Below are positions 1 through 4,215 of a stretch of 4,215 nt of DNA, piece after piece; the stretch's first letter is position 1; each line of letters starts with the position of its first letter. Source of the stretch: Escherichia phage Qbeta; sequence record NC_001890.1. The stretch is one strand, 5' to 3'. Under the pieces are notes generated by a model that did not search any database, had not been told where the DNA came from, and worked only from the letters and a program-made list of their open reading frames with translations. The translations under genes and the position numbers were made by a program.

Positions 1-55
1 GGGTTCCCCCCGTAGGGGGGTACTCTATGTAGTAGCAACCATTACTGGAGGCAAC
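1..55 (+). other. 5' untranslated leader of an ssRNA phage genome, starting with GGG and containing a 5'-proximal GC hairpin (C6-C11 pairing with G15-G20, loop GTA)
   Basis: Seen directly: the sequence starts gggttccccccgtagggggg, in which CCCCCC and GGGGGG are exact reverse complements separated by 3 nt. Leviviruses characteristically start with GGG and a stable 5' hairpin. The first long ORF starts at 56. Confidence 0.8.
47..51 (+). promoter_or_regulatory. Shine-Dalgarno-like GGAGG for the maturation gene, 4 nt upstream of ATG 56
   Basis: ggagg at 47-51 followed by caac then ATG at 56-58; read directly from the sequence. Confidence 0.6.
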
Positions 56-1321
56 ATGCCACGTTTACCTAGGGCACTTCGTTTCGGACCGAATATGGAG
101 GTCTTAAGCGACTTCCAGGAACTCTGGTATCCAGAGTCCATTATCGATTCCGATGTGAAATACCCTTTGTATACCTTCAGAGGTAGCATCGGTGGATCTT
201 TCTTTGATTCTTACGGCACGAATAATATCGTCCGCGAGATTCGTAGAACGCCTCACTGTGCTACAGTACCTATAGCCAGTTCTGGCTTAAGGCCCTGTAC
301 CTCCGTTTGGTATGACCCAACCAGCTTGCTCTTCAGGATTCCTGAGATGAGGGCTGAGTGGGACAATGGCATGGGTGATGCTGGAGATATCGTCTATAAA
401 GACTTTCTCTTCAGCACCCCGGCACCTAAAGAGTTCGATTTCTCGAATTCCTTAGCGCCACGCTACAGTAATGCCTTCTCCGCTTTTAATGCCAAATATG
501 GCGTTATCATCGGTGAAGGGCACGAAACACTTAAGTATTTCGCGCTGTTACTTCGCAGGCTACATAAAGCAGTCCGTGCCGTTCGGCACGGAGATTTACG
601 TGGTCTCCGGAAAATCCTCGACTCTTATAATAAGGGTCGTTGGAAGCCTGCTACTGCTGGTAATCTCTGGCTCGAGTTTAGGTACGGTTTAACTCCGCTC
701 TTCCATGACATTAAAAGTGTTATGGATGATTGGAACCGTATTAACGACAAGATCCAGAAACTTCGCCGTTTCTCTGTTGGTCACGGTGAGGATTTCAAGC
801 TATCAATAGATGGTTTGTATCCTGGCCTAACCCACTTCAGGTTATCCGGCGAGATTACCGTCCAGCGCCGTCATCGGTGGGGTATAACCTACGCTAATCG
901 CGAAGGTTACGCCACATTCGACAACGGTTCCATTCGGCCCGTGTCCGACTGGAAGGAACTCGCTAACGCGTTTATCAACCCTGGCGAAGTTGCATGGGAA
1001 TTAACACCATACAGCTTCATCGTGGATTGGTTTATCAACGTTGGCGATATTATTGAGCAGCAGAAGCAATGGTATCAGAATATTGACATTGTCGACGGTT
1101 ACCAGCGTCGCGATATACGCATGCGTTCCGTCTCTCTTAAAGGAGTACGGAATGGCATACCTGTACGCGTTACTGGATCAGTCGAACTTGTTGATTCCTT
1201 TTACAATCGCTCTCATACTACTCGTATCCCGCAAGCCACACTAGCAATCGATACGTCCTTCTCGAGTATTAAACACGTGATGGACAGTATTTCTCTTATA
1301 ACTCAGCGCATAAAACGCTGA
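56..1321 (+). CDS. A2: Maturation (A2) protein, 421 aa; in Qbeta-type phages this is the pilus-attachment protein and also the lysis factor
   Basis: First ORF after the 5' leader, ATG at 56 with an upstream GGAGG, TGA stop at 1319-1321. The length is that expected for an allolevivirus A2 (about 420 aa). The N-terminal MPRLPRALRFG, internal blocks such as RRTPH..TVPIASSGLRP, KEFDFSNSL, NAFSAFNAKYG, KPATAGNLWLEFRYGL, and the C-terminal LITQRIKR closely match my recollection of Qbeta A2. The gene position is the canonical one. Confidence 0.95.
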   Translation: MPRLPRALRFGPNMEVLSDFQELWYPESIIDSDVKYPLYTFRGSIGGSFFDSYGTNNIVREIRRTPHCATVPIASSGLRPCTSVWYDPTSLLFRIPEMRAEWDNGMGDAGDIVYKDFLFSTPAPKEFDFSNSLAPRYSNAFSAFNAKYGVIIGEGHETLKYFALLLRRLHKAVRAVRHGDLRGLRKILDSYNKGRWKPATAGNLWLEFRYGLTPLFHDIKSVMDDWNRINDKIQKLRRFSVGHGEDFKLSIDGLYPGLTHFRLSGEITVQRRHRWGITYANREGYATFDNGSIRPVSDWKELANAFINPGEVAWELTPYSFIVDWFINVGDIIEQQKQWYQNIDIVDGYQRRDIRMRSVSLKGVRNGIPVRVTGSVELVDSFYNRSHTTRIPQATLAIDTSFSSIKHVMDSISLITQRIKR

Positions 1322-1342
1322 CCACATTGGGTCAATTCGATC

Positions 1343-1744
1343 ATGGCTAAATTACAAGCTATCACTTTAAGTGGTATTGGGAAGAACGGTGACGTTACTC
1401 TGAACCTCAACCCGCGTGGGGTAAATCCCACCAACGGTGTTGCCGCGCTTTCAGAAGCGGGTGCAGTTCCTGCATTGGAGAAGCGTGTTACAATTTCTGT
1501 ATCACAGCCTTCTCGCAATCGTAAGAACTACAAAGTTCAGGTAAAGATCCAGAACCCAACCTCTTGCACTGCAAGCGGTACTTGTGACCCTTCAGTTACT
1601 CGTTCGGCTTATGCTGACGTGACGTTCTCGTTCACGCAGTACAGCACTGATGAGGAACGTGCACTCGTACGAACAGAGCTTAAAGCCCTGTTGGCGGATC
1701 CAATGCTTATCGATGCTATCGATAACTTGAATCCGGCGTACTGA
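1343..1744 (+). CDS. cp: Major coat protein, 133 aa, ending at a leaky UGA
   Basis: ORF MAKLQAITLSGIGKNGDVTLNLNPRGVNPTNGV...QYSTDEERALVRTELKALLADPMLIDAIDNLNPAY. It is near-identical in length to the Qbeta coat protein as I recall it (MAKLETVTLGNIGKDGKQTLVLNPRGVNPTNGV...NPAY), with several recognisable blocks shared. It is the second gene in the canonical order and terminates at TGA 1742-1744 followed by A. Confidence 0.97.
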   Translation: MAKLQAITLSGIGKNGDVTLNLNPRGVNPTNGVAALSEAGAVPALEKRVTISVSQPSRNRKNYKVQVKIQNPTSCTASGTCDPSVTRSAYADVTFSFTQYSTDEERALVRTELKALLADPMLIDAIDNLNPAY

Positions 1745-2332
1745 ACTGCACTTCTTGGTGATGGCTCAGGGCCTAGCCCTGTACCGGGTCCTAATCCGGA
1801 CCCGCCACTGGAGCCGCCGCCAGGGACAGGTAGTTATACCTGTCCTTTCCGTATATGGGATCTTTCCAGCATTTATGAAGCTGCGAATAGTTCCCACTCG
1901 TGGGATATCTATAACGCTGTCGAACTCAGTCCTCGCAAATTTGACGTTACCCTTGATGACCTCTTGGGTAACACAGATTGGCGCGATTGGGACGGCAGAC
2001 TTAGGTATACCACGTTTCGCGGTAGCCGAGGTAACGGATACATTGACCTTGACGCCACTTCGTTGATGCAGGATGAATATCTTACATCTTCGAAGTATTT
2101 AGTGCGTGAGGGGAAACGTCCCGGTGCTTTCGGTTCAATTGAACGGTTTGTTTATCTTAAATCGATAAACGCATACTGTTCTCTTAGCGATATTACGGCC
2201 TACCACTCCGACGGAGTGGTAGTTGGCTTTTGGCGCGACCCGTCAAGCGGGGGAGCCATACCATTCGACTTTAGCGAGTTTGATTCGAACAAATGTCCGA
2301 TCCAAGCCGTTATTGTCGTTCCTCGTCTTTAG
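1343..2332 (+). CDS. A1: A1 read-through protein (coat plus C-terminal extension, about 329 aa), made by occasional suppression of the coat UGA at 1742-1744; a minor capsid protein needed for infectivity
   Basis: Codon-by-codon reading shows the frame stays open from the coat UGA (1742-1744) to TAG at 2330-2332, followed by an in-frame TAA at 2333-2335 (tandem stops). The 122-aa ORF 1964..2332 in the track is in the same frame (1343 and 1964 are both congruent to 2 mod 3) and is the distal part of this extension. The extension reads TALLGDGSGPSPVPGPNPDPPLEPPPGTGSYTCPF...GNGYIDLDAT...GAFGSIERFVYLKSINAYCSLSDITAYHSDGVVVGFWRDPSSGGAIPFDF...KCPIQAVIVVPRL, which matches the Qbeta A1 extension as I recall it. 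A 329-aa total equals the Qbeta A1 length. Confidence 0.92.
1742..1744 (+). other. Leaky UGA termination codon of the coat gene (programmed read-through site; context UAC-UGA-A)
   Basis: TGA at 1742-1744 followed by A at 1745 and 195 further sense codons in frame. In Qbeta the coat UGA is read as Trp at a low percentage to give A1 (established knowledge). Confidence 0.88.
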
Positions 2333-2338
2333 TAACTA

Positions 2339-2344
2339 AAGGAG
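2339..2344 (+). promoter_or_regulatory. Shine-Dalgarno AAGGAG for the replicase gene, 6 nt upstream of ATG 2351
   Basis: aaggag at 2339-2344, spacer atctgc, ATG 2351-2353; read directly from the sequence. Confidence 0.75.
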
Positions 2345-2346
2345 AT

Positions 2347-2368
2347 CTGCATGTCAAAGACACTGCAG
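2347..2368 (+). promoter_or_regulatory. Putative translational operator hairpin spanning the replicase start codon (coat-protein binding site that represses replicase translation, and likely packaging signal)
   Basis: CTGCAUGUC-AAA-GACACUGCAG folds by eye as a 5-bp lower stem (2347-2351 with 2364-2368), a single unpaired C2363, a 4-bp upper stem (2352-2355 with 2359-2362) and a 3-nt AAA loop, with the replicase AUG (2351-2353) inside the 5' arm. The Qbeta operator (AUGCAUGUCUAAGACAGCAU as I recall it) is also a 3-nt-loop hairpin with one bulge containing the replicase AUG. Confidence 0.75.
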
Positions 2369-4111
2369 TCGCGTAAGTCGCTTAGCGGAAAACTCCGCCG
2401 CGCTGCGAACACAAGAATCGTGGTTGAAGGTAACCTCGCACTGTCTATCGCGAATGATCTATTATCCGCGCTAGATGTAGAACCGTTTAATTCGGAAGAA
2501 GACTGTATAAGTCGTTCACCGAAATTCGGCATCTCACCAGATCAATTTAGGAATTCCTATCTTCGTGCTGAGATAATGTCGAAGTACGATTCTTTTAGCC
2601 TAGGTATTAATACCGAAGCCGTAGCATGGGAAAAGTTCCTAGCTGCGGAGGCTGAGTGTGCTAAGACGAATCTGAGACTCTATAGGCCTAACTACAATGA
2701 GGATTTCAATTTCTCATTGGGTGAGACATGTATTCACATGGCTCGCCGAAAAATAGTTAAGCTATTAGGAGATTCAGTTCCGTTTGAGGCTGTGTTGCGA
2801 CATTGCCGGTTTTCCGGCGGTGCCACAACAACGAATAGCCGTCTATACGGCCATCCGTCCTTCAAGTTTGCTCTTGCGCAAGAGTGTACCCCACGGGCTG
2901 TTCCATATGTGCAAGCTTTAAAGGCCTGTACAAACATGGACCTTGGTATTACCAAGGTTAGCCCTTTCAATAAAGCAGTTACTGTACCAAAGAACAGTAA
3001 AACTGATCGCTGCATCGCTATCGAGCCAGGCTGGAATATGTTTTTCCAGTTGGGCATTGGTGGCGTAATTCGCGAAAAGTTGCACTTGTGGAATATCGAC
3101 CTGAATGATCAGACGATTAACCAGGTGCGCGCATATTCAGGCAGCTGTAGCAATGAACTTGCTACAGTGGATCTCTCGAGCGCGAGTGATACTATTTCGC
3201 TTGCGCTCGTTGAGCTCCTGCTACCCCCTGCGTGGTTTAAAGTCCTTACGGACCTTAGGTCACGAAGGGGTATGTTGCCAGACGGTAGAATCATTACCTA
3301 TGAGAAAATTTCCTCAATGGGTAACGGTTTCACCTTCGAGCTCGAGTCGCTTATATTTGCAGCTCTTGCTCGGTCTTTATGCGAGTTACTGAACTTACAA
3401 CCGTCGAGTGTCACGGTCTATGGCGATGATATTATATTGCCATCAGACGCGTGCAGCTCGTTGATTGAAGTTTTCTCCTACGTAGGTTTTAGAACCAACG
3501 AGAAGAAGACCTTTTTCGACGGGCCGTTCCGAGAGTCGTGCGGAAAGCACTACTTTATGGGCGTTGACGTCACACCTTTCTACATACGCCACCGTATAGT
3601 GAGTCCCTCTGATCTCATACTGGTTTTGAACCAGATGTATCGTTGGGCCACGATTGATGGCGTATGGGATCCTAGGGTATATCCTGTATACACCAAGTAC
3701 AGACGTCTGCTGCCGGATATTCTCCGCAGAAATGTCGTACCTGATGGATATGGTGATGGTGCCCTCGTCGGATCTGTCCTTACCAGTCCTTTCGCAGAAA
3801 ATCGCGGTTGGGTTCGGCGTGTGCCGATGATAATTGACAAGAAGAAAGACCGAGTGCGTGACGAGCGTGGTTCATATCTCTATGAACTATGGTCGTTACA
3901 GCAGCTCGAATGTGACAGTGAGTTCCCGTTCAACGGGTCGCTGGTTGTTGGTACCAACGATGGAGTTTGCACTTACCGACACCGAGAGCGGGTTTCTACC
4001 GCTATCAGTGATTCGGTTGGCGCATACGACATCGTATGGATACCGTGCAGTAGTCGTGTCCTGGCTCCCTACGGGGACTTCCGGAGGCACGAAGGTTCTA
4101 TCCTAAAATAG
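2351..4111 (+). CDS. rep: RNA-dependent RNA polymerase, replicase beta subunit, 586 aa
   Basis: Longest ORF, last in the canonical order, ATG 2351 to TAG 4109-4111. It contains the catalytic YGDD motif (TVYGDDIILPSD; YGDD encoded at 3419-3430) and the other palm-domain blocks recalled from the Qbeta replicase (MSKT...LRRAANTRI, CRFSGGATTTN, PFNKAVTVPKNSKTDRCIAIEPGWNMFFQLGIGG, YEKISSMGNGFTFELESLIFA, FRESCGKHY, CSSRVLAPYG). The length is close to the Qbeta beta subunit (about 589 aa). Confidence 0.97.
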   Translation: MSKTLQSRKSLSGKLRRAANTRIVVEGNLALSIANDLLSALDVEPFNSEEDCISRSPKFGISPDQFRNSYLRAEIMSKYDSFSLGINTEAVAWEKFLAAEAECAKTNLRLYRPNYNEDFNFSLGETCIHMARRKIVKLLGDSVPFEAVLRHCRFSGGATTTNSRLYGHPSFKFALAQECTPRAVPYVQALKACTNMDLGITKVSPFNKAVTVPKNSKTDRCIAIEPGWNMFFQLGIGGVIREKLHLWNIDLNDQTINQVRAYSGSCSNELATVDLSSASDTISLALVELLLPPAWFKVLTDLRSRRGMLPDGRIITYEKISSMGNGFTFELESLIFAALARSLCELLNLQPSSVTVYGDDIILPSDACSSLIEVFSYVGFRTNEKKTFFDGPFRESCGKHYFMGVDVTPFYIRHRIVSPSDLILVLNQMYRWATIDGVWDPRVYPVYTKYRRLLPDILRRNVVPDGYGDGALVGSVLTSPFAENRGWVRRVPMIIDKKKDRVRDERGSYLYELWSLQQLECDSEFPFNGSLVVGTNDGVCTYRHRERVSTAISDSVGAYDIVWIPCSSRVLAPYGDFRRHEGSILK

Positions 4112-4215
4112 GGTAGCACCTGGGAGGGGTGCTATACGCACCCTAGGTTAGCAAACTTAAACTAACCTTCTCGAAAGAGAGAGTTGAGGGCTCTGCTTTG
4201 CCCTCACTCCTCCCA
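4112..4215 (+). other. 3' untranslated region with three predicted hairpins and a single-stranded ...CUCCUCCCA-3' tail (replicase initiation end)
   Basis: Exact inverted repeats read from the sequence: 4114-4120 tagcacc with 4128-4134 ggtgcta (7-bp stem, 7-nt loop); 4145-4151 aggttag with 4162-4168 ctaacct (7-bp stem, A-rich 10-nt loop caaacttaaa); 4185-4190 tgaggg with 4201-4206 ccctca (6-bp stem, 10-nt loop). The window ends in CCCA like leviviral genomes. Confidence 0.8.

Follow-up and report, generated by a model that had tools for sequence, protein, structure and literature searches.

In Qβ, both RNA strands begin with 5'-GG and end with CCA-3', the 3' A being non-templated, and synthesis starts de novo with GTP placed opposite the penultimate C, the CCA-3' end entering the template channel of the β-subunit (PMC4200798). 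Small templates of Qβ replicase need a 3' CCC, a 5'-terminal stem and a 5'-3' interaction (PMC4652763, PMC6913131), and PMC4652763 attributes the rule of a 5' stem combined with an open 3' CCC to Biebricher & Luce (1993) and Küppers & Sumper (1975). In MS2, a (-) RNA that carries the 5' leader complement at its 3' end is sufficient for (+) synthesis; (-) templates that retain the terminal hairpins only are copied poorly, and full activity needs the complement of the whole leader (PMC6847885). A 5'-terminal hairpin has been published for all sequenced ssRNA phage genomes, and a need for it in RNA replication is 'suggested' only (PMC3561173).

The window, i.e., the whole stretch of 4,215 nucleotides analysed here, comprises the entire genome of MX1 (Qubevirus durum; accession AF059242), a Qβ-like RNA phage. 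Its A2, coat and replicase proteins are exact matches to entries for 'Qbeta virus strain MX1' in GenBank, RefSeq and UniProt (AAC14698, AAC14699 and AAC14701, respectively; the same cluster also contains A1, AAC14700), and both the gene order (A2, coat with A1 read-through, replicase) and the length of ~4.2 kb are those that serve as criteria for Qubevirus durum. The nearest relative in the phage collection, M11, shows 88.8% identity, with positions 1-4215 of the window aligned to positions 1-4217 of M11, and the 3' end of the window reads ...CUCCUCCCA, the same as in every complete Qubevirus record compared. Given the exact MX1 proteins, the end-to-end alignment with M11 and this 3' end, the window represents a whole genome and not a fragment. 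MX1 and M11 were reportedly both part of the comparative set in a structure study of Qβ from 1996. With regard to annotation, the record is labelled Escherichia phage Qbeta, yet the strain is MX1, and the names attached by NCBI to the exact MX1 proteins are misleading, i.e., 'head maturation protease' for A2 (56-1318) and 'minor head protein' for the coat protein (1343-1741). When the whole window was compared with Rfam 15, no family was found at or above the gathering score, the replicase operator and the 3' UTR being unmatched as well; the sole match, mir-451 with E = 0.71, is a chance hit. The absence of an Rfam model for the 5' hairpin is a gap in curation and not in knowledge. Coordinates are collected in Table 1.

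Table 1. Features of the MX1 genome and of its 5' and 3' termini (positions are those of the window; for the minus strand, plus-strand positions are given).
Feature	Position	Strand	Remarks
5'-terminal GGG	1..3	+	Complement is the minus-strand 3' CCC, start of plus-strand synthesis
Apical stem, 5' arm (C6)	6..11	+	Pairs with 15-20 in every fold, full-length MFE included
GUA triloop	12..14	+	Loop sequence varies among relatives
Apical stem, 3' arm (G6)	15..20	+	Sole G6 run in the window
Outer stem, 3' arm (ACUC)	22..25	+	Predicted to pair with U4, G3, G2 (G·U) and G1; plus-strand-only extension closing the 5' end
Rest of A2 leader	26..55	+	Shine-Dalgarno GGAGG 47-51, AUG at 56; 100% identical in M11 and metagenomic relatives
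Minus-strand 3' end	1..25	-	5'-GAGUA-CCCCCC-UAC-GGGGGG-AACCC-3' plus non-templated A; predicted stable hairpin with open CCC(A) tail
A2/maturation ORF	56-1321	+	ORF list
Coat ORF	1343-1744, UGA read-through to 2332 (A1)	+	ORF list
Replicase ORF	2351-4111	+	ORF list
3'-terminal hairpin, loop with UGCUU; tail CUCCUCCCA	4185..4215 (hairpin 4185-4206)	+	Predicted from folds

The window opens with GGGUUCCCCCCGUAGGGGGGUACUC, and its bases 1-20, GGGTTCCCCCCGTAGGGGGG, are laid out as GGGUU-CCCCCC-GUA-GGGGGG, in agreement with the description given in the original prediction. In a 22-nt segment, the hairpin formed by positions 6-20 has a calculated energy of -11.8 kcal/mol (RNAfold). Longer segments add an outer stem consisting of G1-C25, G2·U24, G3-C23 and U4-A22 with a U5·U21 mismatch, and hairpin plus outer stem reach -16.9 kcal/mol in segments of 30-36 nt, with -21.9 kcal/mol for segment 1-55. 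A repeat search described the same element as an inverted repeat with arms 3-11 and 15-23 that are 89% complementary and separated by 3 nt. The very stable terminal hairpin that had been predicted is borne out by these energies, whereas its placement directly after the GGG needs correction, as two U residues lie between and the GGG itself is predicted to be paired. The 4215-nt window holds one C6 run and one G6 run, both of them in the 5' hairpin, and the 25-nt segment starting at nt 1 ranks as the sixth most stable of ~4190 in a sliding-window comparison of energies. Dinucleotide shuffles of the 5' segment yielded z values of -1.8 and -0.9, which are not significant; this control is uninformative for the 5' hairpin, since six C and six G give a stable fold whatever their order, and it was replaced by genome-wide run counts, the sliding-window energy rank and comparative analysis. 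Judged from the sequences compared, the evidence against a chance origin of the predicted hairpin is its position at the 5' extreme together with its conservation with compensatory changes.

The C6/G6 hairpin is kept in full-length MFE folds of both strands. The terminal Gs of the plus strand are paired with 23-25 in folds of 120, 400 and 860 nt, whereas the full-length plus-strand MFE pairs G1-U5 with 645-649 and not with 22-25, so that the pairing partner of these residues is uncertain. A second conserved hairpin within positions 26-55 was not recovered by RNAalifold from 11 Qubevirus 5' ends. This part of the leader contains a start-stop arrangement, AUG followed by UAG UAG at 27-35, which is present in M11 and the metagenomic relatives and absent from Qβ and group IV, and which, in a leader that does not vary, is probably due to chance. 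The 3' end of the plus strand is predicted in short contexts to consist of the hairpin 4185-4206 followed by an open UCCUCCCA tail, i.e., the same layout of hairpin plus CCCA, and the UGCUU in its loop is the conserved U1 loop sequence (PMC3561173). In the full-length MFE, the 3'-terminal UCCC is paired with a GGGAG ~90 nt upstream (4122-4126 with 4210-4214), closing a 3' domain in a way that resembles the published ld IX.

Comparison of the two strands revealed a predicted asymmetry. In partition-function folds of 32, 60 and 150 nt, P(unpaired) for G1-G3 of the MX1 plus strand is 0.09 or less, whereas the values for the terminal CCC of the minus strand are 0.91/0.78/0.66 in the 150-nt context; a difference in this direction recurs in nearly all genomes and is weakest for Qβ Anc. 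The terminal AACCCA is likewise unpaired in the full-length minus-strand MFE, and RNAalifold retained only the four apical pairs in the minus-strand alignment and left the 3' tail open. The apical stem can form on both strands because it is fully Watson-Crick, while the outer stem is lost on the minus strand because the G·U pair there turns into a C·A mismatch, which is a generic property of any wobble pair. When U24C was introduced in silico, the minus-strand 3' end became closed locally, and U24C combined with U21A closed it fully in both 32-nt and 150-nt contexts. All of these folds are thermodynamic models, mostly of short segments, and as a by-product they offer a quantitative view of how the placement of G·U and U·U would close the element on the plus strand and open it on the minus strand. 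At the 5' end of the minus strand, the cross-genome consensus leaves the terminal Gs unclosed. As regards the template criteria for Qβ replicase, a 5'-terminal stem and an accessible 3' end are both present in the predicted folds of MX1, and a 3' CCC(A) exists on both strands, since the plus strand ends with CCCA (4212-4215) and the complement of GGG is CCC.

For comparative analysis, the 5' end of MX1 was set against the complete 5' ends of Qβ, BZ1, BR12, HL4-9, TW18, VK, M11, NL95, HB-P22, HB-P24, BR1, BR8 and BZ13 DL20. A terminal hairpin is common to these 14 complete genomes, which represent four lineages (MX1/M11, Qβ-like, group IV and one emesvirus), and as only ~4 lineages among these genomes are independent, the genome counts overstate the evidence. 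The comparison with reference 5' ends, which had been proposed originally as a check, thereby returned the same terminal hairpin in the relatives, and the stated resemblance to the Qβ 5' end extends to an architecture shared by Qβ, five Qβ-like genomes, M11, five group IV genomes and one emesvirus. Energies of the compared hairpins range from -17 to -27 kcal/mol, each hairpin begins at the 5' G run, and complete Qubevirus records open with 3-5 G. Because the MAFFT alignment of 5' ends ran off the structural register in mid-stem, pairs were tabulated per genome from its own fold. Counted from the loop, levels 1-4 are always C-G, being invariant in 11/11 aligned Qubevirus 5' ends and present in the emesvirus BZ13 DL20, and levels 5-7 are C-G, G-C or A-U depending on lineage, which represents compensatory change. 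At least one G·U is found among the last pairs in every lineage, the terminal G lying opposite a (C/U)UC run, and the loops of the relatives differ (CGUA, UUUA, CUUA, AUAA, GUAA, AUAAA, UUUC). On the plus strand of the 11 Qubevirus 5' ends, RNAalifold recovered this element alone, with four invariant apical and four outer pairs; one pair column was changed on both sides (4 sequences), and several one-sided changes between G-C and G·U occurred.

Between MX1 and M11, the 55-nt leader agrees at 55/56 positions, compared with 88.6% genome-wide, and ~6% of 55-nt windows are conserved as strongly as the leader. The sole difference between the two leaders concerns the C run, which is C6 (6-11) in MX1 and C7 (6-12) in M11 with a CGUA loop; it may be real or may stem from a homopolymer or band-compression error. 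No blastn alignment with Qβ was obtained for nt 1-400 of MX1. A deviating 5' end was noted in group IV, where the SP records X07489 and GQ153933 read GGGGGUAGGGGGGAUAAAGGGGGCC at positions 1-32 and are devoid of the apical CCCC/GGGG, unlike the other group IV genomes, 5/5 of which have a GGCCCC...GGGGCC apical hairpin. The SP deviation probably goes back to an early sequencing error at a GC compression, which later records inherited.

With regard to the authenticity of the 5' terminus, M11 begins with the same GGGUU as MX1 and the alignment starts at nt 1 in both. Lookups with the exact proteins identified nine metagenomic contigs from a lineage ~88% identical to MX1. None of them (0/9) reaches nt 1 and a homologous upstream extension was found in none. 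Seven of the nine cover part of the 5' leader: two begin at C7, three begin at G17-A22 and two run upstream as chimeras. These two were considered as candidates for a longer molecule and were rejected, as contig L013 (1-1180) is joined at ~nt 24 to an arthropod hemocyanin mRNA (Pfam PF03723, E = 6e-80) and contig L014 (1-125) is fused at G17 to unrelated sequence that has no Rfam match. The MX1/M11-like metatranscriptome contigs that stop inside the hairpin are L012 and L035-L038, and the stable hairpin seems to be a place at which library preparation or assembly breaks off or switches template. Scans of viral contigs for the hairpin and of a metagenome for hairpin plus leader returned 0 matches each; a 19-mer leader scan in a second metagenome search returned 9 matches, all of which are chance hits with unrelated flanks. 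The original prediction that the window starts at the genuine genome terminus is upheld by the identity of the window with the 4215-nt MX1 genome, the end-to-end alignment with M11 and the contigs that are free of any homologous upstream extension.

Taken together, it is highly probable that the element constitutes the conserved 5'-terminal replication hairpin of F-specific RNA coliphages, situated at the genuine 5' end of MX1. As replicase begins each strand with GTP, placed opposite CC in the 3'-CC(A) end of its template, the plus strand opens with GGG, and the minus strand consequently ends with ...CCC plus an untemplated A. That the minus-strand complement ends in CCC(A) and serves as a start site for replicase, as had been stated originally, agrees with the complementarity to GGG and with the published 5'-GG/CCA-3' ends and the positioning of GTP opposite the penultimate C (PMC4200798). 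In the proposed mechanism, the apical C6/G6 stem would form on both strands. On the plus strand, the outer stem formed by the terminal Gs with A22-C25 would close the 5' end. Folding and comparison suggest that the outer stem falls apart on the minus strand, such that a rigid hairpin would be followed by a single-stranded AACCC(A) tail entering the template channel of the replicase. In the nascent plus strand, the early formation of the hairpin would probably also satisfy the need of replicase for a 5' stem, which may help to keep product and template from annealing, to judge from the literature on small templates. The designation of the hairpin as a minus-strand 3' initiation element holds for the CCC, while an own contribution of the hairpin to initiation on the minus strand is something we infer; the element is not a purely minus-strand signal because the outer stem is present on the plus strand only. 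Nor is the hairpin a sufficient promoter, as MS2 templates with terminal hairpins only are copied poorly. Probably both the minus-strand and the plus-strand roles apply.

Several other explanations have to be weighed against a conserved replication hairpin. That the G and C runs are non-viral and stem from homopolymer tailing, from a vector or a T7 GGG start, or from an adapter has next to no credibility in our view. Homopolymer runs at the end of a sequence are indeed a classic signature of cloning, the C run differs by one C between MX1 and M11, and the terminal GGGUU occurs in MX1 and M11 only, the independent metagenomic contigs stopping within the hairpin. In metagenomic contigs from independent samples of the Illumina era, however, the sequence CCCCCGUAGGGGGGUACUC is the same as in MX1, several laboratories have contributed the 14 genomes with homologous hairpins, and the GGG/CCCA ends agree with the biochemistry of the replicase (PMC4200798). 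All metagenomic contigs overlapping nt 7-25 are identical to MX1 in this region, and as they are independent, a cloning artefact is excluded as the source of the hairpin; the only records that give bases 1-5 and the exact lengths of the runs are those of MX1 and M11, and the contigs end within the C run and thus give no decision between C6 and C7. A different proposal, which we entertain tentatively, is that the hairpin works mainly on the plus strand as a 5' clamp, where folding of the nascent strand as it emerges would block formation of a template-product duplex and aid the release of single strands, its complement on the minus strand mattering for the CCC only; in addition, it may shield the 5' end from 5'-end-dependent RNases. 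The outer stem, with its alternation of G-C and G·U, is kept in the plus-strand sense only and the plus-strand 5' GGG is predicted to be nearly fully paired, as this proposal would have it, but the apical stem is fully Watson-Crick and forms equally on the minus strand, MS2 replicase needs the complement of the leader on the (-) strand (PMC6847885), and RNase protection is our own conjecture. A nascent-strand function is moreover compatible with the replication hairpin favoured here and is likely part of the truth. It is quite unlikely that the 5' GGG and the 3' CCC instead form a terminal helix within one molecule ('functional circularity'), for which the hairpin would present the 5' end. The two triplets are complementary to each other, and Ugarov & Chetverin (2008), as cited in PMC6847885, PMC6913131 and PMC4652763, proposed a cooperation of the 5' and 3' ends for legitimate templates of Qβ replicase; cofolding of the first 30 nt with the last 45 nt, however, yielded neither intermolecular pairs nor a gain in energy, the ends are not paired with each other in the full-length MFE and could form 3 bp at most, a contact of this size or a tertiary one being conceivable, and for MS2 the other terminus is dispensable in (-) to (+) copying (PMC6847885).

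A further possibility concerns translation of the maturation protein. CUCUA at 23-27 is complementary to UGGAG at 46-50 in the Shine-Dalgarno region of A2, and C23-U26 (CUCU) could therefore toggle between the terminal G1-G3 and G47-G50 of the Shine-Dalgarno sequence and thereby gate translation of A2. If this were true, the pairing state of the 5' terminus, be it local or with replicase or a long-range partner, would set the opening of the A2 ribosome binding site, and replication status would be coupled to A2 translation in Qubevirus by a compressed version of the UCS-SD switch of MS2. When G1-U4 are withheld from a 60-nt leader, C23-A27 do pair with U46-G50, but this conformer is 4.3 kcal/mol less stable and absent from every MFE of MX1. 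The 400-nt MFE of Qβ has the Shine-Dalgarno sequence paired with 23-26 and G1-3 elsewhere, the Shine-Dalgarno sequence of HB-P22 pairs with 28-34 just 3' of the hairpin, and MS2 has a sequence complementary to its Shine-Dalgarno directly 3' of the 5' hairpin (PMC4615214). A 4-bp match of CUCU/GGAG to a purine-rich Shine-Dalgarno sequence easily arises by chance, however, and in 860-nt folds the ribosome binding site is closed by downstream partners at ~370-373 and 462-471 in MX1, M11, Qβ and BR12, which leaves the toggle an unlikely explanation. In these 860-nt folds, the A2 Shine-Dalgarno/AUG region 42-58 pairs ~320 and 420 nt downstream, and the mean P(unpaired) of the ribosome binding site is 0.44-0.48 in 120- and 400-nt 'nascent' chains compared with 0.26 at 860 nt. 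The predicted long-range pairing resembles the long-distance control that has been published for A-protein synthesis, and closure at 860 nt agrees, as far as the models go, with the published view that translation of A2 takes place on nascent strands. Partner positions of the ribosome binding site are alike in M11, Qβ and BR12, though the first 400 nt of MX1 and Qβ cannot be aligned by blastn.

The conserved replication hairpin that we favour for the 5' end of MX1 is an already known textbook element and adds no new biology. Its recognition confirms the window as a complete, correctly terminated genome equipped with the standard cis-elements for a Qβ-type replicase, which is of use for annotation and for the design of replicable RNAs from MX1. 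Among the known systems, M11 (AF052431) is like MX1 in its outer stem, mismatch and G·U pair. The group IV phages NL95, HB-P22, HB-P24, BR1 and BR8 as well as the MS2-type Emesvirus BZ13 DL20 share with MX1 a terminal, GC-rich hairpin with a CCCC/GGGG apex and a near-terminal G·U, but differ from it in having longer stems of 11-13 bp (-23 to -27 kcal/mol), with G-C or A-U as the lower pairs. MS2 itself has the hairpin within a cloverleaf leader of 129 nt; the leader of MX1 comprises 55 nt, and neither folds nor RNAalifold revealed an MS2-type four-arm cloverleaf (~125 nt) in it. The 5' hairpin of Qβ, GGGGACCCCCUUUAGGGGGUCACCUC, resembles that of MX1 in its location at the 5' extreme, its start at a G run and an apical stem with C in the 5' arm and G in the 3' arm; in both, a (C/U)UC run further downstream is the partner of the terminal Gs, G·U included, and the genome ends with CUCCUCCCA. 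Differences concern the number of terminal Gs (three followed by UU in MX1 and M11, GGGGA in Qβ), the apical stem (six C-G pairs with a GUA triloop in MX1, five pairs with a tetraloop in Qβ) and the U·U mismatch of MX1 and M11, at the place of which Qβ has A-U and G-C pairs and a bulged A. The rule of a 5' stem and an open 3' CCC was derived from small RNAs of the RQ/MDV type, and for both strands of MX1 a closed 5' end and an open CCC(A) 3' end are predicted in short contexts.
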